Assembly (NCBI RefSeq): GCF_053078305.1
Contig: NZ_CP166879.1
Strand: one strand, 5' to 3'
DNA length: 64,000 nucleotides
The position numbers and the translations under genes were made by a program. The number at the start of each line of letters is the position of its first letter. Within the stretch, counting starts at the first letter, position 1. The notes beneath the pieces are model-generated. The model had not been told where the DNA came from and made no database searches. It worked only from the letters and a program-made list of their open reading frames with translations. Positions 25-20,516 of the stretch are shown one piece after another.

Positions 25-34
25 GTTCTTATTC

Positions 35-2444: not shown

Positions 2445-2929
2445 TTAATTACCTTCACTCGCGCTTTTTCTCCCACCACCAGCGCGTTGTCCGGGACAGA
2501 GTCGAGCACCACGCTGCCCGCGCCCACGGTGACGTTGTTACCAAGCGTGATATCACCAAGAATAATGACGTTGGCACCGAGTTCGACGCCGTTGCCAATG
2601 TGTGGACATGCCATGTTATCGGCACCACGATTGCCGATAGTGACGCCGTGGCGAATGGTGAAATCATCCCCCGCTACCACGTTTTTATTGATCACTACGG
2701 CGTAACCGTGATGGATAGTAAAGCGGCGGCCAATGGTCGCGGCAGCCTGGATTTCATAACCGAAAAAGCATTCGGTGATAATGCGATACAGCACCAGCAG
2801 CGGGGCCGCCCACAGATTGTTGAGAACGTTCTTTTTGCGCCACACCGAACAAAAATGAGCGACGCGATAGGCAAGAACCATGCAGCACGGGCGTAAACTC
2901 CAGCTGTTGGCGCGTAGATCTTCCAGCAT
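2441..2929 (-). CDS. wcaB: colanic acid O-acetyltransferase WcaB (hexapeptide-repeat family)
   Basis: 162-aa ORF with left-handed beta-helix repeats (IGNGVELGANVIILGDITLGNNVTVGAGSVV). The ATGA overlap with wcaC matches K-12 WcaB. Confidence 0.95.
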   Translation of the reverse strand: MLEDLRANSWSLRPCCMVLAYRVAHFCSVWRKKNVLNNLWAAPLLVLYRIITECFFGYEIQAAATIGRRFTIHHGYAVVINKNVVAGDDFTIRHGVTIGNRGADNMACPHIGNGVELGANVIILGDITLGNNVTVGAGSVVLDSVPDNALVVGEKARVKVIK

Positions 2930-2931
2930 AT

Positions 2932-3771: not shown

Positions 3772-3805
3772 AGGTTGTACTCCCGGCTTATGAGCTGGTT
3801 TGCTT

Positions 3806-3839
3806 GCCGGATGCGGCGTGAACGCCTTATCCGGCCTAC
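3806..3839. repeat. REP (repetitive extragenic palindrome) element between wzc and wcaA
   Basis: GCCGGATGCGGCGTGAACGCCTTATCCGGCCTAC is the canonical E. coli REP sequence. It is intergenic. Confidence 0.8.
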
Positions 3840-3863
3840 GGGGCGGTGCGAATGCAGGCGTCG

Positions 3864-6026: not shown

Positions 6027-6028
6027 TC

Positions 6029-6472
6029 TTATACCTGCTCTGCGTTCAATGCCTGCGCCCACTGGCGGGCAGACCGTTCAAGTAATGTGTACACCGCTGC
6101 AAACGTTTCCCGGCTTTTGCGATACGGATCGGGGATTTCACATTCGTTATCCCAGTGACCAAACAGCATCACTTTGCCGCGCATCTCGGGTGCCATCTCG
6201 CATAAGCGTTCGATATGGCGCTTTTCCATGGTCAAAATCAGGTCATAGTTGCGACACAGGCGGCGGCTGATTTGTCGTGCACAGTGGCCTTCCAGAGACA
6301 GTTGATGTTCTGCGGCGACGCTGATAGCGGTAGGATCAGCGCCCTTACCGACCAGCGCGCCGAGTCCAGCGGACTCCACTTTCAGTTCCGGGTGATAACG
6401 TTGCAGTAAGCGTTCCGCCGTCGGGGAACGGCAAATATTGCCGACACAGACAACTAATATGTTGTTAAACAT
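6029..6472 (-). CDS. wzb: low-molecular-weight phosphotyrosine phosphatase Wzb
   Basis: 147 aa with an N-terminal CVGNICRS P-loop (CX5R). Matches K-12 Wzb. Confidence 0.95.
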   Translation of the reverse strand: MFNNILVVCVGNICRSPTAERLLQRYHPELKVESAGLGALVGKGADPTAISVAAEHQLSLEGHCARQISRRLCRNYDLILTMEKRHIERLCEMAPEMRGKVMLFGHWDNECEIPDPYRKSRETFAAVYTLLERSARQWAQALNAEQV

Positions 6473-6477
6473 GACGA

Positions 6478-7617
6478 TTACCAGTTATGAATGTCGCTGG
6501 CTGTATCCGTCATGTAACGGACACCGCTAATAGTTGGCAGCAACTGATTGATCAGACGGTTCCAGCGGGAAACCGGGGCGGTGGTGACATACACCACGTC
6601 ATAAGGTTGCAGGCGGAATTCTGTCGCCATCACCAGCGACGTGGCATCGGACATATCCAGCTGGTAGATATTGGCAATCTTGCCGTTACGCCCGCCCTCG
6701 CCTTTCAGCGGACGAATGACAAAGATGCCGCTGGCGTTGGAGGTGGTCATGTCGATGCCTTCAGCATTGCCCAGGGCTTCAGTCAGGGTCATGCCGCTAA
6801 AGTCCATTTTCAGGGTGCTCTGTTTCTTCACTTCACCCATCACAAATACTTTCAGATCATCATTACGTGGCACGTAGAGAATATCGCCGGGGTAAAGCAG
6901 GCGATTCTGGTTGAGGTCGCCGTTTTGCATCAGCGCCTGCAAAGAAATGCGCTCTTCACGACCATTGTGTGTTAGCACCACGTTGCGCCAGTCAGCGGTG
7001 TCGGTCAGGCCACCTGCGGCGTTGATGGCATCGAGAATGGTCAGTGGTACGTTGGTAATCGCCTGTTGACCGGATTTATTCACCTGGCCGGAGATATAGG
7101 CTTTTTGCGAGCGGAAGGCGGCGATATTAACGTCCACCTGCGGGTCAGCGATGTACGTCGCTAAGCGCCCGGTAATATCACTGCGGATTTCAGCGAGCGT
7201 TTTCCCCACGACGTGAACCTTGCCGATATACGGGTAGAACATGGTGCCGTCAGGCTGTACCCAGTTGCCGGTGTCGCTGGAACTGCGGTACTGACCAGCT
7301 GGCGTGGTGAGTTCCGGGTGATCCCAGACGGTGACATTAAGAACGTCGCCCGGCCCGACGCGATACTGGTAATTCGCGATCTCGCTTTCCAGCGTCATAT
7401 TGGGGCGCGCTACATTCGGGCGTGGGCGTAATTGGTCAATCAGGCGCGGGGTCAGCGGATACACATTCACCATTTTGTCGAGATCGAAATCAGCGTCCTG
7501 CTGTTTGATGACGTCTTTGCCCATCGTCGACATATTGCTGCCCGGAAGTACTGTGCAACCGCTTATCAAGGTTACTGACACCAATAATGGCATCAATTTC
7601 ATTTTGGATTTCATCAT
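6478..7617 (-). CDS. wza: outer-membrane polysaccharide export lipoprotein Wza
   Basis: 379 aa with a lipoprotein signal ending LISGC. Matches K-12 Wza and is the first gene of the capsule operon. Confidence 0.95.
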
Positions 7618-7794
7618 TGTTTATTTATCACTTTGGCAGAGTAATTATCCTGTGCACTATTAATAGCAATGTCGCCATGCACATTTACCTTGCAGTTAAT
7701 TGAATAAAAATTTAACTGGCATCAGTCCTAAAAAAATTGATTTCATCCGCAGGCTATTGACAGAATAATTCAGACTGGCTTTCAGGCATCCAGA

Positions 7795-7806
7795 CACGCT
7801 ACCGCC
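7795..7806 (-). promoter_or_regulatory. ops element (RfaH recruitment site) within the JUMPStart sequence of the wza leader
   Basis: The reverse strand reads GGCGGTAGCGTG (ops consensus GGCGGTAGnnTG), about 180 nt upstream of the wza start, in the transcribed orientation. Confidence 0.85.
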
Positions 7807-8274
7807 CCTGGCTTTTTAGCTACCAATACACTGATTTAGCTTAATTTTTAAAACCCTCTCAACATACAGTCGTTGATGAGAAAGGGTTATTGCGGAAATT
7901 AACTTCCGAATATAAGGTGACATTATGGTAATTGAATATTGGCTCTCCAATAATGCAGGAGGAAGTGTTACAGCTAACGGAATAGCAGGCAAGGTAACAA
8001 TTCGGCAATTGGCTATTTTTAAGAATTATATTAAGTGTCATTCAATATGGTTTTTAGGAGTTTCTTTAGGTTGACAATATTTAATATTGCGTCTCCACAT
8101 GCGATATTTCTTAAATAATGTTTTATTATTACCACTTTTAATTCAGGGATAATGTGAGGTTATTACCCTCAAATAATATGAGATAAATAGTGCTGCAACA
8201 TTGCATTTTTGCCCCGATTTATCCATGATCGAATTGTGACATTTGTCATACAACGAATAGGTTTTGTACTTACT

Positions 8275-8898
8275 ATGGAATGGATTGCCGATCCGTCTAT
8301 CTGGGCCGGGTTAATCACGCTGATTGTGATCGAACTGGTCCTCGGCATTGATAATCTGGTCTTTATTGCCATCCTCGCCGAAAAACTACCGCCGAAGCAG
8401 CGCGACCGCGCACGGGTTACCGGGCTGTTGCTGGCGATGTTAATGCGCCTGTTACTGCTGGCGTCAATCTCCTGGCTGGTCACCCTGACTCAACCGCTGT
8501 TCAGCTTCCGCTCGTTTACCTTTAGCGCCCGCGACTTAATCATGCTGTTTGGTGGTTTCTTCTTGTTGTTCAAAGCCACGATGGAGCTGAACGAACGGCT
8601 GGAAGGGAAAGACAGCAATAACCCCACGCAACGCAAAGGTGCGAAGTTCTGGGGGGTGGTGACACAAATTGTGGTACTGGACGCCATCTTCTCACTCGAC
8701 TCGGTGATTACAGCCGTCGGGATGGTCGACCATTTACTGGTCATGATGGCCGCCGTGGTTATCGCTATCAGCCTGATGTTGATGGCCAGCAAGCCGTTAA
8801 CGCAATTTGTTAACAGTCACCCGACCATCGTTATTCTCTGCTTAAGCTTCCTGTTGATGATTGGCTTTAGCCTGGTGGCAGAAGGTTTCGGCTTCGTG
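8275..8898 (+). pseudogene. yegH: yegH (TerC/CorC-family membrane protein) truncated after codon 208 by the prophage left end
   Basis: [30 protein letters not shown]...LVAEGFGFV matches the N-terminal 208 of about 527 aa of K-12 YegH. The reading frame hits TAA at 8899-8901, supplied by phage-end sequence. Confidence 0.9.
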
Positions 8899-9069
8899 TA
8901 ACCAGGTGAATCATTTGATACCAACGAGGGTTTTAGTGAAAGGAGGTGAAATCACCTGTAAGATACTGAAATAAAACAGGTGATACCAATGCGAGCGCGG
9001 AAAGTCTATTTGATACCGATTGTGCAATAATTAGTCGTTTATTCTAAAATCGGCAACACTTTTGATACT
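8897..9069 (+). repeat. prophage left end with putative transposase-binding repeats (L1-L3-like)
   Basis: The TGATAC(C/T) core (mostly TTTGATACC) occurs in direct orientation at 8914-8922, 8981-8987, 9009-9017 and 9061-9069. The first lies 17 nt from the TG at 8897. The arrangement parallels the Mu attL L1/L2/L3 sites. Confidence 0.6.
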
Positions 9070-9168
9070 ACGGATTGACGCTTAAAATGGTTTTAAAAAG
9101 GCTTAAAACGCTTTTCTCCAGATTGTCTTTAAAGGAGTGTACCACAGCACAAAATTTGCACCACTCCC

Positions 9169-9729
9169 TTACGCACTAGCCTTTTTCTGGGTTACATTTA
9201 AATGATTAACCTTAGCTTCACATTCTTCATAAATCTCTCTTGCTTCAGAATCTGACATATCCTTTAACCTTAAAGCAAGCTCTCGGCGAAAACCGCTAAG
9301 TGCATGTAATTCCTGAATATTATCATCCAATAAGATCGTTAGAAAATCAGCCCCCTTTCTGCCAAGCAATCGGGCTAATTCTAGTTGCTCATCGGTGCTG
9401 AGAGAGGACAGAATTGCCGTAATTGTTTGATTTGCATTATCTAAATTACCTGCATCGACAGTTGAACAACATGGAGTGCTTGGGGTATTTTCATCAGAAC
9501 CAAAAGCTAACCAATTTAAACTCACGTGCTCTTTATTTGATATAAGGCAAGCCATTTTAAAAGAGGGTTCTGTGCCTTTGTGTATGTAGTTATTTAAGGT
9601 TGATACAGGAACCCCCCAATCCTTTGCTGCTGCCCTTACACTCCGCGTCCCGATCAGGCTTAGTAAGCGGGCTTTAAAACTTTCTTTTCCTGGTGCATCA
9701 AAAGAAAAATTTCCATTCTCTTCAATCAT
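9169..9729 (-). CDS. prophage repressor (Mu c-like position, HTH protein)
   Basis: 186-aa ORF divergent from ner at the left end. The N-terminal segment RSVRAAAKDWGVPVSTLNNYIHKG looks like a helix-turn-helix. Position is equivalent to Mu Repc. Confidence 0.72.
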   Translation of the reverse strand: MIEENGNFSFDAPGKESFKARLLSLIGTRSVRAAAKDWGVPVSTLNNYIHKGTEPSFKMACLISNKEHVSLNWLAFGSDENTPSTPCCSTVDAGNLDNANQTITAILSSLSTDEQLELARLLGRKGADFLTILLDDNIQELHALSGFRRELALRLKDMSDSEAREIYEECEAKVNHLNVTQKKASA

Positions 9730-9851
9730 TTTTTCTTTTCCTCATAACATATTGAAATAAAAAGAGATAACCAAATAAAACCCACTTCAGCCCACGGAGA
9801 CAAAAGAAAAAGCTATTTTTGCTTTACATGGACTACATTTGGATCAATACT

Positions 9852-9887
9852 TGTATCAAACTTGATAACAAAATTTAGTTATCAAAT
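9852..9887. promoter_or_regulatory. candidate operator / early-promoter region between repressor and ner
   Basis: Contains the dyad TATCAA-AC-TTGATA (9854-9867) plus GTTATCAAA (9878-9886), inside the 185-bp AT-rich divergent intergenic region. The motif resembles the end repeats. Confidence 0.45.
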
Positions 9888-9914
9888 TTCGTAACTTTTT
9901 AGGATAGATGAATC

Positions 9915-10145
9915 ATGGCGAGAAATGAAGTTAAGCCTGATTGGCATCCTCAAAGAATCTTGGGGGAAGTCAGAGCCAGAGAAGGAAGTATGAGGGCGCT
10001 GGCCCGTAAAGCTGGCGTAGGTCAGAACAACCTGTACAACGCGGTATACCGTCATGTTCCCAAGTATGAGGGGATTATTGCGGAATGCCTAGGTGTGCCA
10101 CCCGAGGAGATTTGGCCCAGCCGCTACATTCGTAAGGTCGCGTAA
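9915..10145 (+). CDS. ner: Ner-like DNA-binding early regulator
   Basis: 76 aa. DWHPQRILGEVRAREGSMRALARKAGV...PEEIWPSRY parallels Mu Ner (DWHRADVIAGLKKR...PEVIWPSRY). It is the first rightward gene. Confidence 0.88.
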   Translation: MARNEVKPDWHPQRILGEVRAREGSMRALARKAGVGQNNLYNAVYRHVPKYEGIIAECLGVPPEEIWPSRYIRKVA

Positions 10146-10147
10146 TT

Positions 10148-12235
10148 ATGTTTGCTTCAGTTAAAGAGCTGGTTGGATTACCGGGAATGCCGGGAACGGA
10201 GCAAGGCGTCCGCTATTCAATCAGGAAGTATGCAACCAGCGAAACCAGCAGACGCCGCCAGGAAGGCAGTAAAGGTTTTGAATACAGCATCGACTGTTTA
10301 CCTGAAGTGACGCAGCAGGCATTGCGTGAGCGCTACGCCCTGCAACTGATGACGCAAAAAGTCGATGAATCACCGGCTCCGGTGGTGACAAAGGCCAGAC
10401 GCTCGCCTGCCGTGGTTGATGCGGTGGAGGCATATCGCGGATCACCACAACTGATGGTTGAACGCCTTAATGCCCTGACTGAAAACCAGCGCCAGGTGGC
10501 TGATGCACGAATCGCGATCGTCAGCGAAGTGATGAAAGTCGCGCAACACCCCGGTTTCAGCTGTGCGAAAGCTATCCGGTTTATCGTTGACAACCTGGCA
10601 CGTTCGCAACTGGACGAGCGCATTGTGGCAATGGTTGAGACGGCGAACGCCAAAAAGGGAAACAGCCGTGCGTTGAGTGAAATAACGCTGAAACGCTGGA
10701 TTGCGGCCTTTAACAAGGCGCAGAACGCCGCTGAACGCCTGCTTTTACTGGCACCGGGTAAGCGCCAGGAAATAAAAGCCGAAGATATTAACTGGCTGCC
10801 CGAATTTCTGGCGCAGTATCGCCAGTCAAACGGCCGACCAATGACCGAGGCTTACGAGGATTTTGTCGCTGAATGGCAGCACCGGCACGCTGATGAGCCT
10901 TATATGCTCGATATCATGCCGTCTTATGACACCATTCGCCGCGCAATGAAGAAACTGCCGGAAGTGGTGAAACAAAAAGGCCGGGTGACCGGCAGTGAAT
11001 ACCGCCAGCTTGAGGGATTCACGCGCCGCGACTGGTCCAGAATGCCGGTGAATTATGTCTGGATTGGTGACGGTCACGGCATGAAGCTGAAATGCGCACA
11101 CCCGGTTCACGGTCGGCCATTTGCACCGGAAGTGACCTTTGTTATCGACGGTGGCACGCGCTTTGTGGTGGGCTGGAGCCTTGACCTGGCTGAAAATGTT
11201 TTCGCCGTAGCCGGTGCCATACAGCACGGCATTCGCCATCACGGCAAACCGTTTCTGTATTACTCGGATAACGGCTCCGGGGAAACCGCCGACATCCTGG
11301 ATAAGGAGGTTGTGGGGATACTGCCGCGACTGGGGATTAATCACCCGACCGGGATTGCCGGTAATCCGCAGGGACGAGGCATTATCGAACGGCTTAACCG
11401 CACATTACCGATGCGCATAGCCCGTAAATACCGCACCTATTTCGGGAAAGGTGCAGATCGCGAGACGTTACGCAAAACCAACCGCGATTTACGCTCGGCA
11501 TTTACTGCCCTGCAACAGGGCAAACGGCTGAACGTCCGGCAGCAGTCAGCGATGCGTGATTTACCGTCCTGGTCTGAACTGATTGATGCCATTCGTGACG
11601 GTGTTGAGTGGTACAACAACCGGCCGCACGATGAATTACCGGTGAAGCCGAACGGCAAGCATTACAGCCCGGCGGAGTTCAGAAAAAAACGCCTGGCGGA
11701 AGAGGACACGGAAATTGAATGGCTGTCCGATGTTGAGCTGCGGGATATGTTCCGGCCGATGGTGGAACGCCCTGTAAGACGCTGTGAAATACGCTGGCTG
11801 AATAATATTTACTACGCGCCCGAGCTGCGTGACGAGCATGGTCGTAAGGTGCTTATCAGCTATGACATTCATGATGCCGAACGAATTACCGTACGTCGCC
11901 TGGATGGCAGCGTGATTTGCGAGGCGGTATGGGACGGTAATAAACGCGAAGCCTTCCCGGTTAGTGCGGAATACTACAAACAGCAGCAACGCCTTAAAGG
12001 CATGCGTAAACGCGCAGAGGAAAAAATCCGTGATGCCGAGGATGAGGTTGTCAACGTGCTGGAGCACAAGCCGCAGGAGCCCTGGCTGGAAAACATCTAT
12101 CGCCCGGTAGGTAATACGGTGGCCGTTCAGCAACCGGTCGCTGACGATGAACCTGATGAAGAATACGAGCGTAATTTCCAGCGGGGATTGCAGTTGCTGG
12201 AAGCGAAATTAAAAGAAAATGACCCGCTGGCCTGA
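10148..12235 (+). CDS. A: MuA-type DDE transposase
   Basis: 695 aa with a DD35E core visible (VWIGDGHGMK ... YYSDNGSGE ... GRGIIERLNRTL). Position after ner and size similar to MuA (663 aa). Confidence 0.92.
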   Translation: MFASVKELVGLPGMPGTEQGVRYSIRKYATSETSRRRQEGSKGFEYSIDCLPEVTQQALRERYALQLMTQKVDESPAPVVTKARRSPAVVDAVEAYRGSPQLMVERLNALTENQRQVADARIAIVSEVMKVAQHPGFSCAKAIRFIVDNLARSQLDERIVAMVETANAKKGNSRALSEITLKRWIAAFNKAQNAAERLLLLAPGKRQEIKAEDINWLPEFLAQYRQSNGRPMTEAYEDFVAEWQHRHADEPYMLDIMPSYDTIRRAMKKLPEVVKQKGRVTGSEYRQLEGFTRRDWSRMPVNYVWIGDGHGMKLKCAHPVHGRPFAPEVTFVIDGGTRFVVGWSLDLAENVFAVAGAIQHGIRHHGKPFLYYSDNGSGETADILDKEVVGILPRLGINHPTGIAGNPQGRGIIERLNRTLPMRIARKYRTYFGKGADRETLRKTNRDLRSAFTALQQGKRLNVRQQSAMRDLPSWSELIDAIRDGVEWYNNRPHDELPVKPNGKHYSPAEFRKKRLAEEDTEIEWLSDVELRDMFRPMVERPVRRCEIRWLNNIYYAPELRDEHGRKVLISYDIHDAERITVRRLDGSVICEAVWDGNKREAFPVSAEYYKQQQRLKGMRKRAEEKIRDAEDEVVNVLEHKPQEPWLENIYRPVGNTVAVQQPVADDEPDEEYERNFQRGLQLLEAKLKENDPLA

Positions 12236-12306
12236 AATAAAAAAATAACCCGAGCGGCGACTCAGGTTATTTGATTAAACAAGGTATCAAATGAGAGGTT
12301 AATAAT

Positions 12307-13239
12307 ATGACTGATATTAACGATGTAATCAAGACCATTGATGAACTTATTGATGGCGGCGTACTGACGCAGTATGCCATCGCCAGAGAGGCGGGAATTT
12401 CCGACGGCACATTATCGGCTTTCCGTAAGGGAAAATATAAAGGCGATAACGCTGCTGTGGCTGCTTCCCTGCGTTCCTGGTATGAGAACTGGAATAAACA
12501 AAGCGCACTGCCGGAACCGCCGCAGTTTGTGGAAACGCAGACAGTCCAGGAGCTGCGCGCACTGTTTCAGGCGGTTCGTCTGATGGGCTGTATTAACGTT
12601 ATTGTGGGCGTACCGGGTGTGGGTAAAACGGCCACTGCCCGTAATTACTGCCAGGAGCAACCAAACACCTGGATGATCACCCTGTCACCCGCGCACTCCA
12701 GCGTCACGGAGTGTCTGCTGGAGCTGGCCGATGCGCTGGGGATTGATTACACCCGCGCGAACAAAGGGGCATTATCCCGCGCCATCCGCCGTCGCCTGAT
12801 GGGAACGCGTGGACTGGTGATTGTGGATGAGGCGGATCATCTTGGTATTGACGGTCTGGAGCAACTCCGGGCAATTCAGGACGCCACGGGGATCGGGATG
12901 GTGCTTATTGGTAACCCGCGCGGATTGTTTAAAGGTGGACGCCGCGCCTTTGATGATTTATCGCGCCTGTTCAGCCGTCTTGCCCGTACAAAACAACTTC
13001 GCAAGGCCAAAAAGGCGGATGTGCTGGCCATTGCCAGGGCATGGGGTATCAGTGGTGAGGCCGAGCTGGCCGTCATGCAGGCTATCGCTGAAAAGCCCGG
13101 TGCGTTACGTGTTCTGACACATACGCTTAACCAGGCGTGGCTCACAGCCAGCGGTGAAGGCGCGGCGCTGACAGAAAAACATATTAATGCGGCCTTTAAA
13201 GAGGTTTATACCAACCCTGAATTACTCTCACAGGTGTGA
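12307..13239 (+). CDS. B: MuB-type AAA+ ATPase / target DNA activator
   Basis: 310 aa with an N-terminal HTH-like region, Walker A GVPGVGKTA and Walker B LVIVDEADHL. It follows the transposase as in Mu. Confidence 0.9.
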   Translation: MTDINDVIKTIDELIDGGVLTQYAIAREAGISDGTLSAFRKGKYKGDNAAVAASLRSWYENWNKQSALPEPPQFVETQTVQELRALFQAVRLMGCINVIVGVPGVGKTATARNYCQEQPNTWMITLSPAHSSVTECLLELADALGIDYTRANKGALSRAIRRRLMGTRGLVIVDEADHLGIDGLEQLRAIQDATGIGMVLIGNPRGLFKGGRRAFDDLSRLFSRLARTKQLRKAKKADVLAIARAWGISGEAELAVMQAIAEKPGALRVLTHTLNQAWLTASGEGAALTEKHINAAFKEVYTNPELLSQV

Positions 13240-13241
13240 TT

Positions 13242-13463
13242 ATGGCGGTATTTAATATTCCTGATATTTACGGACGCTTTTACCTGGTTAATTTCGATAA
13301 CGTGAAGGTGATTTCACTGGCCGAAAATAAAGAATGTGGCGATTTACTTTTTGAATTTAATGACCGCACACGAATGGTGATATCTGCCGGACTTGATCGC
13401 GAAGGTGCGACAGACGTTTACAGCGGAATATGCCGTTCTGTTGGTGCGAAACAAGTCAGCTAA
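13242..13463 (+). CDS. hypothetical early protein
   Basis: ORF-track 13236-13463. ATG at 13242 is preceded by CAGGTG. Tightly packed in the early operon with no recognisable family. Confidence 0.5.
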   Translation: MAVFNIPDIYGRFYLVNFDNVKVISLAENKECGDLLFEFNDRTRMVISAGLDREGATDVYSGICRSVGAKQVS

Positions 13464-13475
13464 ATGAGGTGTTAT

Positions 13476-13730
13476 ATGAATATGCAATCCTGCGGTAACA
13501 AAATGAATTTATTCGACTCCCTGAACAGCGCGCGCCGTCTGACCGAACTTGCCGGTGCGGTACTGGAACGCAGTAAGCGCTATCCGCAACGTTTTGCACT
13601 GAAAACCACGCCGCCGGTAGGCAACGTGCAGGGAACCGGTGAAATTGAAATCACCATACAGACCAACGGCCTGCGCCGCCGTGTGAAGGCCACCCGCATC
13701 AGCGGCTGCACGGTTTACTGGGAGGTGTGA
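13476..13730 (+). CDS. hypothetical early protein
   Basis: ORF-track 13464-13730. ATG at 13476 is preceded by GAGGTG. Same-strand early operon. Confidence 0.5.
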   Translation: MNMQSCGNKMNLFDSLNSARRLTELAGAVLERSKRYPQRFALKTTPPVGNVQGTGEIEITIQTNGLRRRVKATRISGCTVYWEV

Positions 13731-13731
13731 G

Positions 13732-14013
13732 GTGAAAAAAAATCTCATTGCATGGGCGTGGTCGAGTGGTCTTATTGAGTTTGGTTACGTCCTGCCGGAA
13801 GGTGCATTGCCGATAGTTGCCGGAAAGCCTGTCACGGTACGGCATGTGATTGAGGTTATGGCGCGTCATGGACGTGATGAACAGGAGCAGTTACTGGTTC
13901 CGGGGATACCGGAAGCGGTGACGGAGGAAGAAGCCTTTAATGCCATGATTCGGTTCTGCCGTGAGGTCAGACGCCGGGTCAGTTATCCAAACAGAACGAG
14001 GACCAGAGGATGA
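13732..14013 (+). CDS. hypothetical early protein
   Basis: 93-aa ORF with a GTG start 6 nt after GGAGG. It overlaps the next start (ATGA at 14010). Confidence 0.5.
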   Translation: MKKNLIAWAWSSGLIEFGYVLPEGALPIVAGKPVTVRHVIEVMARHGRDEQEQLLVPGIPEAVTEEEAFNAMIRFCREVRRRVSYPNRTRTRG

Positions 14014-14282
14014 GTAAAGTCGTACGCATTATTTTCGAATACAAGGAGCACGTTATCCATAAAAACGCTGATGGAACAGTGCGCATGGGGGTAAGTCTGG
14101 ACATACGTTCAACCGGGATAAAGCAGAAAGGTGATGGACCCGCCATGATTTTTGGAGTGGTTATGCTCGCGGAAAGCAGAGACTTTGCTGAACTTGTGGC
14201 AATGAAAGCCAGTGCGCTCATGAAAGATATGAGCATGCGTTCCGGGGTTATTAAAGGTAATGAATTTAATCAGCAGGGGTAA
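14010..14282 (+). CDS. hypothetical early protein, tandem paralogue 1 (MSKVVRIIFEYK...)
   Basis: 90-aa ORF. The N-terminus MSKVVRIIFEYKEH is near-identical in pattern to the next gene's MSKVRVIFEFKH. Confidence 0.55.
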   Translation: MSKVVRIIFEYKEHVIHKNADGTVRMGVSLDIRSTGIKQKGDGPAMIFGVVMLAESRDFAELVAMKASALMKDMSMRSGVIKGNEFNQQG

Positions 14283-14286
14283 TTCC

Positions 14287-14580
14287 ATGAGCAAAGTACG
14301 CGTTATTTTTGAATTTAAGCATGTTTCGCATGACGAAAAACCGGCAGGTAATGACTGTGTTGAAGTGCATGAAAAGATTGGTGTGGATGTAAAAACAGAA
14401 CGTGATACGAATAACAGGCCGACGTCACTCTGTGACGTTTATGCAAGTATTCTCCAGTATCACAGTCCTGAAATTATTCAGTTTCTCTCAGCGGAATTTC
14501 AGGCATCTGTACAGGCTTTTGGGGCGGATGCCATCATTAAACGCCACCGCGTGCATAAAGCATCAGGCACACTGCAATAA
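14287..14580 (+). CDS. hypothetical early protein, tandem paralogue 2 (MSKVRVIFEFK...)
   Basis: ORF-track 14260-14580. The internal ATG at 14287 gives MSKVRVIFEFKHVSHDEK, parallel to the preceding gene. Confidence 0.55.
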   Translation: MSKVRVIFEFKHVSHDEKPAGNDCVEVHEKIGVDVKTERDTNNRPTSLCDVYASILQYHSPEIIQFLSAEFQASVQAFGADAIIKRHRVHKASGTLQ

Positions 14581-14591
14581 GGAAAAACAAA

Positions 14592-15122
14592 ATGGCTAAA
14601 CGTGTTACAAAATTAAAGGCCGCAGCCGAGGCTGCACCGCAGACCCGCGAAGAAGTCAGCCGCGATATCCGTACCCTGGGCGATATTCAGCGAGAGGCGC
14701 TACGGCTGGAAACGGCGATGAATGATGAAGTGGCAGAAATCACCGCCCGTTATACGCCGCAGATTGAAAACCTTAAAAAAGAAATCAAAGTGCTTTTTAA
14801 GGGGATTCAGGACTGGTGCAAAACCAACCGCGATGAGCTGACGAACGGCGGCAAAACCAAAACAGTCAATCTGACCACCGGCACGGTGTCATGGCGGCTG
14901 GGAACGCCATCATGCAGCGTCAGCCGTGATGTGGAAGGTGTGATTGAAATGCTGCGCCGTATGGGGCTTGAGCGATTCATCCGCACGAAAGAGGAAGTGA
15001 ACAAGGAAGCGGTCCTGGCGGAGCCGGATGCGGTGAAAGGGATTGCCGGTATTAAGGTAAATAAAGGCGCTGAAAGTTTTTATGTCGAGCCTTTTGAACA
15101 GGACGCCGGACTGAATAAATAA
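14592..15122 (+). CDS. gam: Gam-like host-nuclease inhibitor (Ku-like dsDNA-end binding)
   Basis: 176 aa. IRTLGDIQREALRLETAMNDEVAEIT...NRDELTNGGKTKTVNLTTGTVSWR...LERFIRTKEEVNKEAVLAEPDAVKGIAGI closely parallels recalled Mu Gam (174 aa). Confidence 0.9.
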   Translation: MAKRVTKLKAAAEAAPQTREEVSRDIRTLGDIQREALRLETAMNDEVAEITARYTPQIENLKKEIKVLFKGIQDWCKTNRDELTNGGKTKTVNLTTGTVSWRLGTPSCSVSRDVEGVIEMLRRMGLERFIRTKEEVNKEAVLAEPDAVKGIAGIKVNKGAESFYVEPFEQDAGLNK

Positions 15123-15219
15123 CACCACATTAAATCTTTAAATATCACATCGTTTTAATTATGGCGCTCGCGTCAGGGGACTGCCTGCGCCTGTAAACTG
15201 AAAATAAGGAACAGGAAAT

Positions 15220-15762
15220 ATGGCATATTTTTATTTCAAATTAGACCGTGTGCAGACAAATAAATATTTCACCAAATATCAACAGACTGTTTTACCGCTA
15301 CGCAACAGTATTCTTCGGGCATTACTGAAAAATACAGGCGCTGCCGGATTGCGCTTAAAGCCGTTCGCCATGGACAGAATCAGTGAGTTTTATTTTTCCG
15401 GTGCTCTGCCTGCGGGCTGGCGTAAGCGCGATGATGTGGCTTTTATCGGGGACGGACCGTGCTTTATTGCCAGACCTGATGAGTTATGCCCTGAAGGACC
15501 GGCGATTGCCGCAATGGTTGAAGCCGCTGAACGCGATTTAAGAAAGCGTCCTGATTTCCTTGTCTGGCTCTGTGAAAAGCTGGGGGTAATGAGAATCCCC
15601 TCCATGTTTAACATGGACTCCTGGTGGACCCCGTCACTCTCCCGTGATGCCCTGTGCGTGGTGTTTAAAGTAGGCGCTTATGGCAGGGAAATAAACGGGT
15701 GTATTCCTGAAGAATGCCAGGAAATTAAACATTCTGAATATGTGGCGCTGACGGAGGAATAA
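15220..15762 (+). CDS. hypothetical early protein (possible distant paralogue of 16299-16814)
   Basis: 180-aa ORF with a good SD (AGGAACAGGA). No recognisable family. Confidence 0.55.
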   Translation: MAYFYFKLDRVQTNKYFTKYQQTVLPLRNSILRALLKNTGAAGLRLKPFAMDRISEFYFSGALPAGWRKRDDVAFIGDGPCFIARPDELCPEGPAIAAMVEAAERDLRKRPDFLVWLCEKLGVMRIPSMFNMDSWWTPSLSRDALCVVFKVGAYGREINGCIPEECQEIKHSEYVALTEE

Positions 15763-15765
15763 TTC

Positions 15766-16299
15766 ATGATTGATGCAAAAGTGCTTGAAGGGGTTAAAAA
15801 CTGGCTGAGTATTTACGGGCGTCTGACCTGCGGAGTTCTGGCTGAAAAAATGAATATGCCGCCATCCTCGATGGTTTATTTTCTGCGTGATGCGGTTGAT
15901 GCCGGGGTGCTGACGGAATGTAACGGTTTTTATGATATTCCGCGTCCCCGCCCGGTGCAGCCGGTTCGTCGCAAATGCAGCCAGGAGTCTGCGGCTGATG
16001 ATGTTCAGTGGTGCAGCTTCAGAAAATCCCTGCCGTGGATTGAGGGGCATGATATTCCGTCGATGGCGTGGGAATTTGCTCAGGGCATACTGACCTGTGA
16101 AACCGTTTATGTGGTGGCTGAAGTTGATGAGCAGGCCATGAAAGAAGGTGTACCCCAGTTTGTGATGGCGTATATCGACATACGCCTGGGTGTCATTATC
16201 TGCGGTTTAAGCGGCTGGAATATCACCGGACATGTTCTGCGTTACCTGATTGTTGACCGGACAGCGGCACCGGCCGCGATTTCTGCGGAGGTGGCGTAA
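15766..16299 (+). CDS. hypothetical early protein
   Basis: 177-aa ORF with SD GGAGGA. TAATG coupling to the next gene. Confidence 0.55.
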   Translation: MIDAKVLEGVKNWLSIYGRLTCGVLAEKMNMPPSSMVYFLRDAVDAGVLTECNGFYDIPRPRPVQPVRRKCSQESAADDVQWCSFRKSLPWIEGHDIPSMAWEFAQGILTCETVYVVAEVDEQAMKEGVPQFVMAYIDIRLGVIICGLSGWNITGHVLRYLIVDRTAAPAAISAEVA

Positions 16300-16814
16300 T
16301 GTTCTTTAAAACATCGAACCCTGCCGCGCTGGCCGCGTGGCAAAAATATCAGCAGGACTGCCAGACGGTAAAAGATGAGGCGAAACGCCTTGAGGCCGTG
16401 CTGAATGTTGCGTGCCGGTCGGTATTTGAATTCAGTATCAGTGGTTTTTGTTTTAAGGGACTGCGTTTTACGGAGGACAAATATCCTTTTCATCGTGATT
16501 TATGGCGAAAACCAACTGCGTCGAATGGCTGGAGCTGCACACCGCGCACATCACGTATTCCCAAAGCCCTGCGCGTTGCCTCTGACGAACTTAACAGTCT
16601 GTGGCGTGAATATTCGCCCGTCACGTATGCCAGAACCGATGCACTGTTGTTCTGGCTGGGCATTGATTTCTCGGCAATCCTGTTTGGCCCTGTGGAGTGG
16701 TTCTGCGTTGACGATGTGATTTACCTTCAGTGCGGCGTAAAACCCGCAAAACAGAAAATGACCGAAATTCTGTCTGATGAGTTTTATGCTGCTGAAAAGC
16801 GAGTCAGGGGGTGA
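16299..16814 (+). CDS. hypothetical early protein (possible distant paralogue of 15220-15762)
   Basis: 171-aa ORF, translationally coupled. Shares collinear short motifs with the 15220 product (KYQQ, WRK, (V/F)WL..(L/I)G(V/I), SE(Y/F)(V/Y)A). Confidence 0.55.
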   Translation: MFFKTSNPAALAAWQKYQQDCQTVKDEAKRLEAVLNVACRSVFEFSISGFCFKGLRFTEDKYPFHRDLWRKPTASNGWSCTPRTSRIPKALRVASDELNSLWREYSPVTYARTDALLFWLGIDFSAILFGPVEWFCVDDVIYLQCGVKPAKQKMTEILSDEFYAAEKRVRG

Positions 16815-16817
16815 TGC

Positions 16818-17369
16818 ATGATGATATTACAACCCATGGGGAGAAAAGGCAGTGCACCCGCTCATGTTCGCGCATGGACACCTGAAGAAGATGCGCTGCT
16901 GATTGCGCTTTATCCATCCACCCCGGTTAAGGATATTGCTGTCAGGGTAAAAAGAAGTTTCTGGGGTGTACATCACCGGATTGTTTTATTACGCGGCACT
17001 TACCCGGAGTTGCTCAAATGCAAACGTCCAAGATTTAAACATGATGAAGATAAATTTATCCGAAAAAATGCCAGAACGATGACCGGTAAGCAAATAGGAG
17101 AATATCTGGGGCGAGACCGGGATTCTGTCCACAATCGGGCGCGATATATTGGCGTAAGCATGAAAAAATACGGAGAATTGCTGCCCTTCACCCGTATATC
17201 TGATGATGATGTTCGTCTTATTCGTGAATTACGGGATGCTGAATCACCACGACGTCTTACCTTCCGGGAAATAGGCGAGAAATTTGAATTATCCGAGAGT
17301 ACGGTAAATTTTATTTATCACCATCGCCGGACTGCCGAAGATGTTGTATTACGGGAGTTAATGCCATGA
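16818..17369 (+). CDS. predicted DNA-binding protein with three Myb/SANT- or HTH-like repeats
   Basis: 183 aa. Repeats are RAWTPEEDALLIALY...IAVRV..S...V.HRI, then RFKHDEDKFIRKN...GKQIGEYLGRDRDSVHNRARYIG, then RISDDDVRLIRELR...FREIGEKFELSESTVNFIYHHRR. Confidence 0.55.
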   Translation: MMILQPMGRKGSAPAHVRAWTPEEDALLIALYPSTPVKDIAVRVKRSFWGVHHRIVLLRGTYPELLKCKRPRFKHDEDKFIRKNARTMTGKQIGEYLGRDRDSVHNRARYIGVSMKKYGELLPFTRISDDDVRLIRELRDAESPRRLTFREIGEKFELSESTVNFIYHHRRTAEDVVLRELMP

Positions 17370-17677
17370 TAACGACATTATTTGTTGAATCAGACGAGCC
17401 TCTGGTATGTGCCGCCGGAATGTCGGTTTGTGGCGGAACGCTGACCGGTGTTTATTTCGGGGATTTGCGCGGTTATCCCTGGCATTCACTGGATGACGCA
17501 TTTCCGCCTGATATGGAGGCAGTCGTGCTGATTGTTCAGTATGGTGACCAACAGGAACTGCGCATCGGCCATATGGGGTATGAAGGCTTTTTTATTGATG
17601 AAGAAACCGGAGCCTGCCTTGAAGATGAGGACGGACAGGTGACGCACTGGTGCCATATTTCAGCTTTACCGGAATGA
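17366..17677 (+). CDS. hypothetical early protein
   Basis: 103-aa ORF with ATGA start/stop overlap with the preceding gene. Confidence 0.5.
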   Translation: MITTLFVESDEPLVCAAGMSVCGGTLTGVYFGDLRGYPWHSLDDAFPPDMEAVVLIVQYGDQQELRIGHMGYEGFFIDEETGACLEDEDGQVTHWCHISALPE

Positions 17678-17691
17678 CGGGAGGTGAATGC

Positions 17692-18042
17692 GTGAGAAGT
17701 TATATTGATAATGAAAAACTGAAGACAATCAGCGACTGTCTTAGCTTGCTGGCAAAAATAAAAGAAACCATTGAAGAGATTAAATTTCAGCTTGAATACG
17801 CACCCTGTGGTGATGATACATGGCGTAACTCTGCCAGAAAAGCACTGGCTGTCTTTCAGAAACAACGCCGGACTGTTGAATACCGCCTTGCTGTATTACG
17901 CCAGGAGGAAAAGGAAAGAAATATAAGATGTCACGAGCGCGTTAATAACTTCCTTGTTCGTGAATTAAAAGAACGTGTGCCGGAGTCGGTATTTTTTGAG
18001 TGTGAGGCTGTTGCCCGTAGCAAAGCACTGGAAACTGATTAA
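17692..18042 (+). CDS. hypothetical early protein (coiled-coil-like)
   Basis: ORF-track 17650-18042. The GTG at 17692 follows GGAGGTG and avoids overlap with the upstream gene. Confidence 0.45.
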   Translation: MRSYIDNEKLKTISDCLSLLAKIKETIEEIKFQLEYAPCGDDTWRNSARKALAVFQKQRRTVEYRLAVLRQEEKERNIRCHERVNNFLVRELKERVPESVFFECEAVARSKALETD

Positions 18043-18054
18043 ACAGGCAGGTGA

Positions 18055-18390
18055 ATGATGAGTATTGAATTAAGATCGTCTTATGAATATCGTAAAATTC
18101 TCATCGCCGGAGGCATGAAACCGGAAGATGCAGAAAAAATTGTTTCTTTTATGGATAAAGAATGTGACAAACGGGATATGCCAGAAATTATTATGGATGA
18201 CATGATTCTGCATTCAGCCGTAGCGTTAAGCCCGTTATGGATTGTGCATTCTCTTGCTGAAATTGCCAAAGGCACCGATAAACAGGCAGCTGTTGCTGCC
18301 CTTCAGACGCTTAATGAAATGCGTATATCTCCACGCCCGACATTAATACATATGATTCTCTCCAGTATGGAGGATAAAGCAAATGAATAG
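18055..18390 (+). CDS. hypothetical early protein
   Basis: 111-aa ORF with SD AGGTGA. Confidence 0.5.
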   Translation: MMSIELRSSYEYRKILIAGGMKPEDAEKIVSFMDKECDKRDMPEIIMDDMILHSAVALSPLWIVHSLAEIAKGTDKQAAVAALQTLNEMRISPRPTLIHMILSSMEDKANE

Positions 18391-18580
18391 TCTACCCGCT
18401 GGATGGGCGCGGCCACTAATGGCCAGGAAGCATCATTTTTTTAAAACAGGCGAAAATATCAGTATATGTGGACGGTGGTTATATCTGGCTCATAATCGCG
18501 AGCCGGATACATTTGAAAGCCCTGATGACTGTGCCGAATGCCGCAGAAGAGTGAATAAGGAGAAAGATAATGGACAATAG
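18383..18580 (+). CDS. hypothetical small protein with Cys pairs (CGRW ... CAECRRR)
   Basis: 65-aa ORF with SD GGAGGA 8 nt upstream. Possible zinc ribbon. Confidence 0.45.
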   Translation: MNSLPAGWARPLMARKHHFFKTGENISICGRWLYLAHNREPDTFESPDDCAECRRRVNKEKDNGQ

Positions 18581-18866
18581 TTCTCTGTTGTTCTGGTGCT
18601 TATATATCACATCCTTTTTCGGCGCATTTGTTATTACCCGGTGGTTATGTCGAAAAATCATCTGCTTTTTTGATAAAAGACATCCGGTTGAACGGGCGGC
18701 TGATGCGCTCATTCAGCAGGCCATTGTGTTATATAGCGGTGAATTTTTCTGCCGGATAACAACCAGAGATGGCTGGCACATAATGATTATTCCGCCAACA
18801 CACCATGCCCGGTGGGATGAGGCAGAAAAGGCTTTCCATGTCCGTAAAAAGGTAAATACGGTATGA
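18570..18866 (+). CDS. hypothetical protein with N-terminal transmembrane helix
   Basis: 98-aa ORF with SD AAGGAG. Hydrophobic N-terminus LLFWCLYITSFFGAFVITRWL. Confidence 0.5.
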   Translation: MDNSSLLFWCLYITSFFGAFVITRWLCRKIICFFDKRHPVERAADALIQQAIVLYSGEFFCRITTRDGWHIMIIPPTHHARWDEAEKAFHVRKKVNTV

Positions 18867-19372
18867 GAGGAAAACTGATATCCGCCATTCATGTGGCAAA
18901 GCGCGAGCTTGCCCTGGATGATGAGACCTACACATTCGTACTACTGGCAGCCACCGGCAAAACCAGTTGCCGGGATATGTCACCCGGTGAGTTATCCCGC
19001 GTGCTGGATGTTTTCAAAAAACGCGGTTTTAAAGTGCGTCAGAAACCGGTTAACCGGGCCTTAAAACCGGGTACGGTGACCGCCAGAATTCGCGCCATCT
19101 GGAAAGTGATGCACCGGCAGGGCTTTATCTCTGATGGTGCGGAAACCGCTCTTAACCGCTGGGTGAAATCGCAGACGGCCGCGCAGAACGGCGGCGAAGG
19201 TGTGGCAAACTGGCAGTGGCTGGAGCAACACCCCGCCCTGGCCTCAGATGTGCTGGAGCGTCTCAAGCGATGGCACCGCCGCAAAATGCTGGCCGCGATG
19301 GGAATGCCCGAACGCACGCTGATGGGGTATGACGCCGTTTGCAGGCAGTATGAAAAATCACTTCCCCGTTAA
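18863..19372 (+). CDS. gemA: GemA-like protein (Mu gp16 family)
   Basis: 169 aa. LISAIHVAKRELALDDETYTFVLLAATGKTSCRDMSPGELSRVLDVFKKRGF parallels the recalled Mu GemA N-terminus. It is the last gene before the terminator and mor. Confidence 0.78.
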   Translation: MRGKLISAIHVAKRELALDDETYTFVLLAATGKTSCRDMSPGELSRVLDVFKKRGFKVRQKPVNRALKPGTVTARIRAIWKVMHRQGFISDGAETALNRWVKSQTAAQNGGEGVANWQWLEQHPALASDVLERLKRWHRRKMLAAMGMPERTLMGYDAVCRQYEKSLPR

Positions 19373-19376
19373 CCCC

Positions 19377-19407
19377 AAATCCCGCCACAACGCGGGATTT
19401 TTATTTT
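19377..19407 (+). terminator. rho-independent terminator after gemA
   Basis: Perfect 9-bp stem AAATCCCGC / GCGGGATTT (19377-19385 and 19392-19400), 6-nt loop, followed by TTTTATTTT. Confidence 0.75.
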
Positions 19408-19441
19408 AAACTTACCGGGAACGCGAGAACCGGAGGCTGAT

Positions 19442-19867
19442 ATGGCAGAAACTCAGATGAGCATGTTTGGTGGTGACAGTGAGCAACTGCACGCCCTTAT
19501 CGACCGCCTTGATGACATCCCTGATGATGTTCTCAAAAAGAACTGGCCGCGGACCCTGTCAGAACTGGTTGAAGTCACCGGCGCAGAACTTCAGCGTCAG
19601 GGGATTGAGCCGGTACTGGCCGGTAAACTGGCACGCAAGGTGGCTGCGGCTCAGGCAGCCTATATGGGCGGACGGGGTTATTACCTGCCGGTCGGGGAAT
19701 CTCTCTTTGCCGAGCTGCGAAACAATGAGATATTTTCGCGCTGGGACCGGGGCGAGAAGATTGAATCCCTTCGCCGCCATTACCGGATGTCAGAAACCCA
19801 GATTTATACCGTCATACGTGAACAGCGCCGTCTGCATCTGGCAAGAACGCAACCGCCACTTTTCTGA
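19442..19867 (+). CDS. mor: Mor/C-family transcriptional activator
   Basis: 141 aa. The C-terminal half YMGGRGYYLPVGESLFAELRNNEIFSRWDRGEKIESLRRHYRMSETQIYTVIREQRRL parallels Mu Mor (GGGQVYIPRGQALDSLIRDLRIWNDFNGRNVSELTTRYGVTFNTVYKAIRRMRRL). Confidence 0.82.
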   Translation: MAETQMSMFGGDSEQLHALIDRLDDIPDDVLKKNWPRTLSELVEVTGAELQRQGIEPVLAGKLARKVAAAQAAYMGGRGYYLPVGESLFAELRNNEIFSRWDRGEKIESLRRHYRMSETQIYTVIREQRRLHLARTQPPLF

Positions 19868-19938
19868 TATTCCGCAAAGCCTGCCGCCTCTCCTTCACCG
19901 TTACGCTGACTCAGAGAACATCATGAGACAGCGTAACA

Positions 19939-20439
19939 ATGCCAAAACTCCCCGCACCACTGCGTAAAAAGCTGATTGCCCTTGTTCTGGCCGGTGCCGG
20001 GACGTTCACGATTGCCACGCATTACACCGGTTACTGGGAAGGGAAAGAAAACTCCACGTATATCGATCCCACCGGTACACCCACCATCTGTTACGGCCAT
20101 ACCGGCCCGGATGTGAAACCGGGTATGACCCTGACAGATGAAGAATGCCTGGAACTACTGGAAAAGGACATGAAATGGGCCTTTGCGGCCATTGATCGGC
20201 GTGTTCAGGTGCCGCTTACCCGTGGTCAGACGGTGGCGCTGGCTTCGTGGATCTTCTGGGCCGGTGAAACGAACTTTCGCAACTCCACGCTTCTGCGCCT
20301 GATCAATGCCGGGCAGATGCCCGCGTCCTGTAAGCAGTATATCCGCTGGATTTATTCAAAGGGGGTGAAACTTCCCGGCCTTGAGGCCCGCCGTTCGGCG
20401 GATGAATGGTTATGTCGCTACGACTTGCCGAAAGTCTGA
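19939..20439 (+). CDS. lys: SAR endolysin (T4-lysozyme/GH24 family)
   Basis: 166 aa. Gly/Ala-rich N-terminal signal-anchor-release segment KKLIALVLAGAGTFTIATHY, then the catalytic E-x8-D-x5-T pattern (YWEGKENSTYIDPTGTPTICYGHT). Confidence 0.9.
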   Translation: MPKLPAPLRKKLIALVLAGAGTFTIATHYTGYWEGKENSTYIDPTGTPTICYGHTGPDVKPGMTLTDEECLELLEKDMKWAFAAIDRRVQVPLTRGQTVALASWIFWAGETNFRNSTLLRLINAGQMPASCKQYIRWIYSKGVKLPGLEARRSADEWLCRYDLPKV

Positions 20440-20516
20440 ACCGCTTCTGGCGACCGCTCATGATAGCGCTGCTGTGTGCGGTACTGCTGTTACGGGGTGT
20501 CCTGTGGCTGCGGTGA
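20406..20516 (+). CDS. candidate small membrane protein (36 aa) in the lysis cassette, not in the ORF track
   Basis: ATG at 20406 gives MVMSLRLAESLNRFWRPLMIALLCAVLLLRGVLWLR with one hydrophobic helix. Its TGA overlaps the GTG (GTGA) proposed as the i-spanin start. Evidence is its position in the lysis cassette and the single hydrophobic helix only. Confidence 0.33.
   Translation: MVMSLRLAESLNRFWRPLMIALLCAVLLLRGVLWLR

Follow-up and report, generated by a model that had tools for sequence, protein, structure and literature searches.

The accessory block of a Mu-like Escherichia coli prophage is a semi-essential early region of intermixed backbone and cassette genes

Which genes make up the dense run of small open reading frames (ORFs) between B and gemA in a Mu-like prophage, and do they amount to anything new? 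We addressed this question for a 15-gene accessory block on the + strand, at positions 13242-18866 of a 64,000-nucleotide (nt) stretch of contig NZ_CP166879.1 (NCBI RefSeq assembly GCF_053078305.1), the whole of which we call the window. A sequence-only reading, made from the letters and a list of ORFs, had taken the block for a 'semi-essential'-type early region in which gam alone could be named. We find that the block is the semi-essential (SE) segment of a Mu-type early operon, with backbone and cassette genes intermixed. The fuller reading, which assigns the block to the early operon of an Sp18-type Mu-like prophage as its SE part and places it on one transcript, has in our estimate a probability of roughly 85%. 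The prophage type is common and the region is of an ordinary kind that is already known, with nothing so far pointing to a new kind of system; its genes are new members of existing, mostly uncharacterized families.

An early-operon segment of backbone and cassette genes

The block lies between A and B on one side and gemA and mor on the other, and its 15 ORFs (gam and 14 others) are all on the + strand, the strand of the early operon. We refer to most of the 14 by number and to two adjacent genes whose products begin with MSKV as P4 and P5. Coding sequence takes up 97% of the bases, and the spacing between genes ranges from -11 to +15 nt throughout, except for a single 97-nt gap 3' of gam. Shine-Dalgarno-like motifs precede most of the ORFs. 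The same ORFs are called by the Prokaryotic Genome Annotation Pipeline (PGAP) in near-identical E. coli prophages, where 13 products are named 'hypothetical', one 'DNA-binding', and one Gam. In pairwise comparison with six variant prophages, the ratio of nonsynonymous to synonymous substitution (dN/dS) was 0.03-0.5 for every ORF, indicating that all are real genes under purifying selection and that none is spurious. On each of these counts, the tight packing of genes between B and gemA that had been noted from the letters holds up.

The same data bear on an alternative in which those ORFs that lack a Mu counterpart are filler with no function, or miscalled, in a decaying prophage. Many of the ORFs have no detectable relatives outside E. 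coli, frameshifted variants of P5 occur in public assemblies, and one prophage carries an IS66 element between P4 and P5, all of which would suit decay. However, dN/dS well below 1 in every ORF largely refutes this idea. The Shine-Dalgarno-like motifs and start/stop overlaps are, moreover, typical of translational coupling, the reading frames are intact in the great majority of the ~212 genomes that carry the block, and most ORFs have diverged homologs in other phages. In addition, the Mu-like prophage described from O157 Sakai, Sp18, has been predicted to be intact (PMC2669165). We give decay almost no weight.

The genes are also less anonymous than had been thought. All 14 ORFs said to match nothing match PHROG families, with expectation values (E) from 1e-32 to 1e-105, and several have homologs in Mu, SfMu, or D3112/DMS3. 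Nor is gam the only gene that can be named: kil-like, gp11, gp12, gp9-like, SfMu-ORF11-like, and DMS3-12-like genes are recognizable too, so that six products besides Gam have counterparts in described transposable phages. None of the 14 products matched NCBIfam or PADLOC models, the sole PADLOC score being at chance level (E 0.03) and spread across two concatenated proteins. A PDB sequence search with the 14 products concatenated gave nothing below E 0.4. Pfam returned, beyond Gam, only Gp11_C plus weak helix-turn-helix (HTH) matches, with sub-threshold hints (DUF551, winged-helix-like) when scanned at E<=10. In the literature we found no functional study of these specific genes.

Six genes would form the backbone of the operon: those for a Kil-like protein, Gam, gp11, gp12, and a gp9-related DNA-binding protein, together with gemA. 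The Kil-like protein (13476-13730, + strand; ORF open from 13464) has 84 amino acids (aa) from the PGAP start. Its best family, phrog_2679 (E 8e-46), is described as 'Kil protein for bacterial septation inhibition', and it also matches a second Kil-labeled family, phrog_2743, at E 1e-3. An 81%-identical variant is named 'Kil protein family' by PGAP, and BLASTP finds 33% identity to Mu Kil over 39 aa (E 2e-4). The product is thus a probable cell-division inhibitor, as judged from these matches.

Gam is encoded at 14592-15122 (+ strand). By its match to Pfam Phage_Mu_Gam (E 6e-42) and its 57% identity to Mu Gam, the predicted product is a bona fide Mu Gam homolog, a Ku-like DNA-end-binding protein. 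The 97 nt that follow it (15123-15219) are the sole sizeable non-coding gap of the block; Mu has a post-gam gap of similar size, and that of the AST46 prophage measures 145 nt.

The remaining backbone genes of the block lie side by side on the + strand. The gp11 homolog (15766-16299; 177 aa) is 68% identical to Mu gp11 and matches Pfam Gp11_C at E 3e-40, and gp11 homologs are also present in some Gam-anchored loci of other genera. The gp12 homolog (16299-16814; 171 aa; phrog_2314, E 6e-84) is 55% identical to Mu gp12, and a 94%-identical variant is named 'Mu-Gp12 family protein' by PGAP. Gene 16818 (16818-17369) encodes a basic DNA-binding protein of 183 aa with SANT/Myb-like and HTH regions (isoelectric point (pI) 10, net charge +11; phrog_323 'transcriptional regulator', E 1e-58), whose C-terminal half is 32% identical to Mu gp9 over 101 aa (E 1e-8). 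In PGAP annotations it appears as 'DNA-binding protein' or 'SANT/Myb-like'; its Pfam HTH matches are below threshold.

The second class of genes would be small lineage-restricted cassettes, gained, lost, or replaced one or two at a time. A comparison of the B-gemA interval across related prophages had been proposed, and we made it with six E. coli prophages. The interval proved variable, with cassette-like gain, loss, and replacement, and the changes affect one or two genes at a time. In O157:H7 C1-057 (L031 5625-5810) and 23CRST049 (L032 9461-9646), a very hydrophobic 61-aa protein, probably a membrane protein, takes the place of genes 17366 and 17650. Gene 15220 is missing from the AST46 prophage, 17650, 18055, and 18383 from M1 and AST46, and 13732 and P4 from M1 and CI5. 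The 23CRST049 prophage has an additional 139-aa gene and a different kil allele. Gene 18570 is represented in 23CRST049 by an allele of 50% identity; in AST46, where other genes precede gemA, no homolog was detectable. Farther afield, the genes shared with 23 Gam-anchored loci of other genera were limited to gam, in most cases gemA, and now and then gp11 or a member of the 13732 family.

The description of the block as a variable, 'semi-essential' Mu-like early region is borne out, given its place between B and gemA, its gam and kil-like genes, and its mosaic make-up among related prophages. The genes of the Mu SE region have been called 'largely uncharacterised' (PMC3820752), and in Pseudomonas Mu-like phages the left arms hold most regions of genomic plasticity (PMC4378225). 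The variability of the block is the pattern already described for these phages (PMC3820752, PMC4378225). In related prophages, single genes have been lost or replaced naturally, which fits indirectly with these genes being semi-essential, meaning dispensable for plaque formation.

How would such a segment be expressed and act? One transcript would start at the early promoter (Pe) upstream of ner, run through A and B, and reach to about gemA. By analogy with Mu, Gam would shield DNA ends from RecBCD and the Kil-like protein would probably arrest cell division. The other products would include one DNA-binding regulator, one small probable zinc binder, and one probable membrane-anchored protein. 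The rest, to judge by position and variability, would most probably be non-essential host-modifying or counter-defense accessories of the early lytic phase.

A consensus scan, which does not in itself show function, placed a promoter-like site at 9823-9851, upstream of ner. Across 9000-20500, promoter-like and terminator-like sites did not exceed chance expectation and showed no internal excess, and no Rfam RNA family matched across 9-21 kb. The 69-nt gap between gemA and mor contains a strong terminator-like hairpin (19377-19400, + strand), with a nine-pair stem, AAATCCCGC...GCGGGATTT, followed by TTATTTT. This hairpin could be the end, or an attenuation point, of the early transcript.

Several points weigh against this account of the block. 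The roles of nine to ten genes are proposed from position and variability, and transcription from a single promoter is inferred. The Kil assignment combines a weak similarity to Mu Kil (E 2e-4) with a PHROG label. The anti-defense idea found no PADLOC, PDB-sequence, or NCBIfam match, no dedicated anti-defense library having been searched. Finally, with a hairpin between gemA and mor, which overlap in Mu, the operon may end differently from that of Mu.

The prophage itself begins just 3' of the E. coli wza-wzc-wca colanic-acid locus, which occupies window positions 1-8897 (99% identity). Its left arm carries a c-type repressor gene on the minus strand (9169-9729), a ner-type HTH gene (9915-10145), A (10148-12235), and B (12307-13239; Pfam B C-terminal domain and AAA). 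The A product is 30% identical to Mu A, and in 94-98%-identical copies PGAP names it 'Mu transposase C-terminal domain'. Beyond the block come gemA (18863-19372; Pfam GemA; 43% identity to the Mu gemA product), mor (19442-19867; Pfam Mor), and a lysozyme gene on the right flank (19939-20439). Pfam matches in the left arm thus comprise Mu B, Gam, GemA, Mor, and a Ner-type HTH.

Among 5426 complete E. coli genomes, 212 (~4%) carry the block at >=80% query coverage and 90-98% identity. The best match is 98.3%, none is identical, and many of the carriers are O157:H7 or other Shiga-toxin-producing E. coli (STEC). The block also occurs in two records of Shiga-toxin (Stx) phages, labeled 'inserted Mu-like phage'. 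The element is most probably an Sp18-type Mu-like transposable prophage, Sp18 of O157 Sakai being the Mu-like prophage described from this host (PMC2669165). In E. coli strain 119, the same prophage type adjoins folK, as against the colanic-acid cluster in the window; differing insertion sites are the expected product of Mu-type near-random transposition.

The MSKV pair, P4 and P5

Are the two MSKV genes a diverged tandem duplication, as their similar beginnings had suggested? P4 (14010-14282, + strand; phrog_4107, E 1e-61) encodes a lineage-restricted protein of 90 aa that starts MSKVVRIIFEYKE, and P5 (14287-14580, + strand; phrog_2230, E 1e-40) one of 97 aa that starts MSKVRVIFEF. Aligned pairwise, the N-termini are identical at 12 of 17 residues (BLASTP E 9e-4), with codons alike too, and the full-length local score lies 4.95 standard deviations above the shuffle mean, a value attained by 3 of 5000 shuffles. 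Trimmed of their first 17 and 15 residues, however, the proteins score at the shuffle mean (p=0.49 local, 0.095 semi-global). The similarity does not extend over most of either protein: it is confined to the first 17 residues, the remaining ~75 behaving like shuffled sequence. The two proteins also fall into separate PHROGs, with no cross-match at E<=10.

The duplication is thus shown for the N-terminal ~17 residues only. At the sequence level there is essentially no significant similarity past the first dozen residues, the outcome that the sequence-only reading had itself named as refuting. We conclude that the first ~50 nt (17 codons) of P4 and P5 form a homologous 5' module, followed by bodies that look unrelated, and that this module is real.

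Both families are very narrow. From a library of 1.84 billion representatives, the 150 best matches listed contained one diverged relative of P4 (P0031; 55% identity, N-terminus identical) and none of P5 below 90% identity. A word-indexed protein search with P4 and P5 together returned only 5 close clusters. In E. coli genomes, P4 has an allele with 81% protein and 86% nt identity (dN/dS 0.28), and in CI5 and NCCP 13983 P5 has a 61%-identical allele that keeps the N-terminus; dN/dS for P5 is 0.27-0.40. The N-terminal motif is invariant across all these relatives and alleles, which implies strong constraint on it. When P4 and P5 were modeled by AlphaFold2 as one chain, the mean predicted local distance difference test score (pLDDT) was 43, unusable for fold comparison, because the alignments are so shallow.

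An alternative is that P4 and P5 are tandem paralogs over their full length, diverged everywhere save in a constrained N-terminal strand, and retain the same fold and a related function. The genes are adjacent and similar in length, with a significant N-terminal match, and 225 of the 231 E. coli genomes with any match contain both. The invariance of the N-terminus in both families suggests a functional constraint able to survive divergence. In hhalign, P4 against P5 gave a probability of 71-72%, and the more diverse P5 profile produced a collinear alignment of 73 columns at 71%. The score, however, was ~31 whether 27 or 73 columns were aligned, so the extra columns add no evidence. Without the N-terminal segment, the remainder looks like shuffled sequence, and PHROGs, a remote-homology clustering, separates the two. 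No intermediate sequence occurs among the 150 best matches listed, and the AlphaFold2 model gives no usable fold to compare. Full-length paralogy is in our judgment a minority possibility, to be held tentatively.

The shared module has a further property: in some prophages it is a recombination joint, through deletion or cassette exchange. Prophages of the CI5 and M1 type have one MSKV gene, of the P5 type, and lack P4. Over the 74 nt upstream of that gene, the homology is with the stretch before P4 in the window, namely the 3' end of 13732 (55/75 identical), and not with the P4-P5 junction. This places the breakpoint within the shared 5' segment. The arrangement could have come about in two ways: the repeated 5' ends of the two genes recombined and P4 was lost, or the 5' end was duplicated and acquired a new body, giving rise to P4.

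Two further observations concern this pair. Three rare public clusters (P0003-P0005) are P5 variants frameshifted at three positions, all into one alternative frame that is open for 65 codons (window 14402-14599) and at its end overlaps the start of gam. These clusters probably reflect pseudogenes or assembly variants, noticeable only because this frame happens to be open. In 23CRST049, an IS66-family element (ISEc22; 3968-6303) lies between P4 and P5, and the C-terminus of P4 is changed.

Cassette genes and possible anti-defense roles

Gene 15220 (15220-15762, + strand; 180 aa; phrog_2260, E 7e-73) is an accessory gene between gam and the gp11 homolog. Its product is 39% identical over its full length to SfMu gp11 (ORF11; E 4e-43), which occupies the same slot right after gam, and 36-38% identical to Yersinia Mu-like phage proteins. 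ORF11 has been described as unique to SfMu relative to Mu (PMC4406740). We rejected DUF5420 (PF17457), the RefSeq label of SfMu gp11, as a name for this family: neither the window protein nor SfMu gp11 matches PF17457, and the relatives P0021 and P0022 score 13-14 bits on it against a cut-off of 26.

Gene 13732 (13732-14013, + strand; 93 aa; phrog_1518, E 2e-42) belongs to the DMS3-12/JBD69 gp14 family. Proteins of Pseudomonas, Burkholderia, and Stenotrophomonas phages share 43-50% identity with its product, and the family alignment has 15 invariant columns, including a conserved VPG-PEA motif. As sole query in the word-indexed protein search, it returned relatives only at >=88% identity; a winged-helix-like Pfam match in the E<=10 scan was below threshold.

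Both phrog_1518 and NCBI names label this family 'host nuclease inhibitor', a designation that we set aside, as the protein resembles neither Mu Gam nor the Gam encoded in the window. The name seems to stem, without experimental basis, from the D3112 record, in which the last 90 residues of a 266-aa gam product are a member of the 13732 family. Over the stretches compared (D3112 4476-5276 and DMS3 1975-2776), DMS3 is 99.3% identical to D3112 and has one extra A, with which gam terminates two bases before the next gene begins. A 'Rosetta-stone' fusion of Gam and 13732 in D3112 is thereby ruled out as a single-base indel relative to DMS3.

Members of the family do recur near gam. In DMS3 the family member directly follows gam, and in JBD69 it is separated from gam by one gene. 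It directly precedes gam in an Enterobacteriaceae prophage (L004) and lies two genes upstream of it in the window, whereas an Ectopseudomonas prophage (L017) has it ~200 nt downstream, as an N-terminally extended ORF. This recurrent nearness hints, if weakly, at a functional connection to Gam.

The remaining eight genes, 13242, P4, P5, 17366, 17650, 18055, 18383, and 18570, have no Mu counterpart. The first gene 3' of B, 13242 (13242-13463, + strand; 73 aa; phrog_3375, E 8e-47), has at least four diverged relatives at 45-57% identity among the matches listed from the 1.84-billion representative library; its dN/dS is 0.09-0.22, and its product has no Pfam, NCBIfam, or PDB match.

Gene 17366 (17366-17677, + strand; phrog_6925, E 2e-52) encodes a strongly acidic protein of 103 aa, with a pI of 4.05 and a net charge of -17. 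We considered and rejected DUF551 (PF04448, the lambda Ea22 C-terminal family) for it: the match reached 13.0 bits against a cut-off of 22 (E 0.2), and BLASTP found no similarity to lambda Ea22. In a public variant, P0012, the first 85 residues of this protein are fused to a C-terminal segment that resembles the 18055 protein, which implies a deletion that removed the 17650 gene.

Gene 17650 (17692-18042, + strand; phrog_6158, E 8e-56) encodes a helical-looking protein of 116 aa. Its family is moderately broad, with more than 25 representatives at 32-63% identity among the matches listed and a conserved LAVLRQxEKE motif; homologs in Aeromonas and Escherichia phages are annotated as hypothetical. 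For gene 18055 (18058-18390, + strand; 110 aa; phrog_1988, E 6e-45), the matches listed include one diverged relative, at 48% identity, and dN/dS is 0.05-0.13.

Gene 18383 (18383-18580, + strand) encodes a probable zinc-binding protein of 65 aa; its family is broad and uncharacterized, accounts for ~100 of the 150 representative matches listed, and has no Pfam model. A zinc site is suggested by five invariant residues, W8, H18, C29, C50, and C53. An AlphaFold2 model reached a pLDDT of 90.8, and no significant structural relative of it was found. In some relatives, the domain forms the C-terminal part of longer proteins. Pfam scans of the longer relatives of the 18383 and 17650 families showed no informative fused domain.

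Gene 18570 (18570-18866, + strand; phrog_17269, E 2e-32) encodes a protein of 98 aa with a hydrophobic N-terminal segment. The top Kyte-Doolittle hydropathy over 19 residues is 1.82, in a stretch that starts at residue 5, and on this basis the product is probably membrane-anchored.

Might some of these cassettes be dedicated anti-defense or anti-restriction inhibitors, with P4, P5, 15220, 17366, 17650, 18055, and 18383 as candidates? They sit in an early region beside gam and kil and are swapped singly between close relatives. The accessory loci of Pseudomonas Mu-like phages behave alike, and some of their genes are anti-CRISPR-related (PMC4378225). The products are small, under purifying selection, and have homologs scattered over unrelated phages. 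The charge and pI of the 17366 product are also of a kind often seen in DNA-mimic inhibitors, but acidic composition by itself is weak evidence. Small size and variability are equally expected of host-takeover, superinfection-exclusion, or regulatory genes, and no product is homologous to any protein with demonstrated anti-defense activity, no anti-defense hidden Markov model library having been searched. An anti-defense role is plausible from context, although none of our computations lent it support; that some cassettes are dedicated inhibitors we consider possible, with doubt outweighing belief.

A bolder proposal joins this idea to the MSKV pair. P4 and P5 would be a two-member set of early effectors whose invariant N-terminal strand, MSKV(V)R(I/V)IFE(Y/F)K, serves as a common docking or oligomerization module on different target-binding bodies; more broadly, at least one cassette gene (17366, 15220, or the 18383 family) would be a new anti-defense protein. 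This combination is a long shot. If true, P4 and P5 would represent a small modular family for host takeover or counter-defense, diversified by cassette exchange at the shared 5' segment.

Comparison with Mu, SfMu, and Pseudomonas phages

The preferred account, an SE segment of backbone genes and cassettes, yields a cleaned-up map in which Mu backbone genes are told apart from swappable cassettes and the nuclease-inhibitor name is traced to a frameshift artifact. Because the prophage occurs in ~4% of complete E. coli genomes, many of them STEC, its early genes would be expressed in an important pathogen upon prophage induction. Three small families are broad enough to merit experiments, namely 18383, 17650, and the DMS3-12 family. 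The block would gain in interest only if functional screens revealed anti-defense or toxic activities.

Among the closest counterparts are the Sp18-type prophages of STEC (O157:H7 Sakai Sp18 and relatives): a Mu-like prophage with the same early block, at 90-98% identity, occurs in ~212 complete E. coli genomes, many of them O157:H7 or other STEC. Some O157:H7 copies differ in having the 61-aa hydrophobic protein where the window has the 17366 and 17650 cassette.

The SE region of Mu (kil through gemA, Mup05-Mup16) lies in the same place, between B and gemA on the early strand, and is likewise a tight array of small, mostly uncharacterized genes (PMC3820752). Homologs of its genes in the block and gemA are kil (weak), gam (57%), gp11 (68%), gp12 (55%), gp9 (partial, 32%), and gemA (43%), whereas 9 of the 15 block genes have no Mu counterpart by BLASTP. 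Conversely, Mu gp6, gp7, gp8, gp13, gp14, and the reverse-strand gp15 have no counterpart in the block. The block has an extra gene between B and kil. Its gp9-like gene follows gp12 and is twice as long, whereas Mu gp9 precedes gam, and a hairpin separates mor from gemA, which overlap in Mu.

SfMu shares the extra gene directly after gam (ORF11, 39% identical to the 15220 product), followed as here by a Mu gp11 homolog (SfMu gp12). It is otherwise Mu-like, with gp6-gp9 before gam, and lacks P4, P5, 13242, 13732, and the genes from 17366 to 18570.

The D3112/DMS3-like phages of Pseudomonas (Casadabanvirus) have the same architecture, a backbone of A, B, gam, gemA, and mor amid variable short ORFs (PMC4378225), and share with the block a DMS3-12 family gene near gam. 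Beyond gam, gemA, and that family, they have no accessory gene in common with it. Some of their accessory ORFs are anti-CRISPR-related (PMC4378225), and none of those was found in the block.

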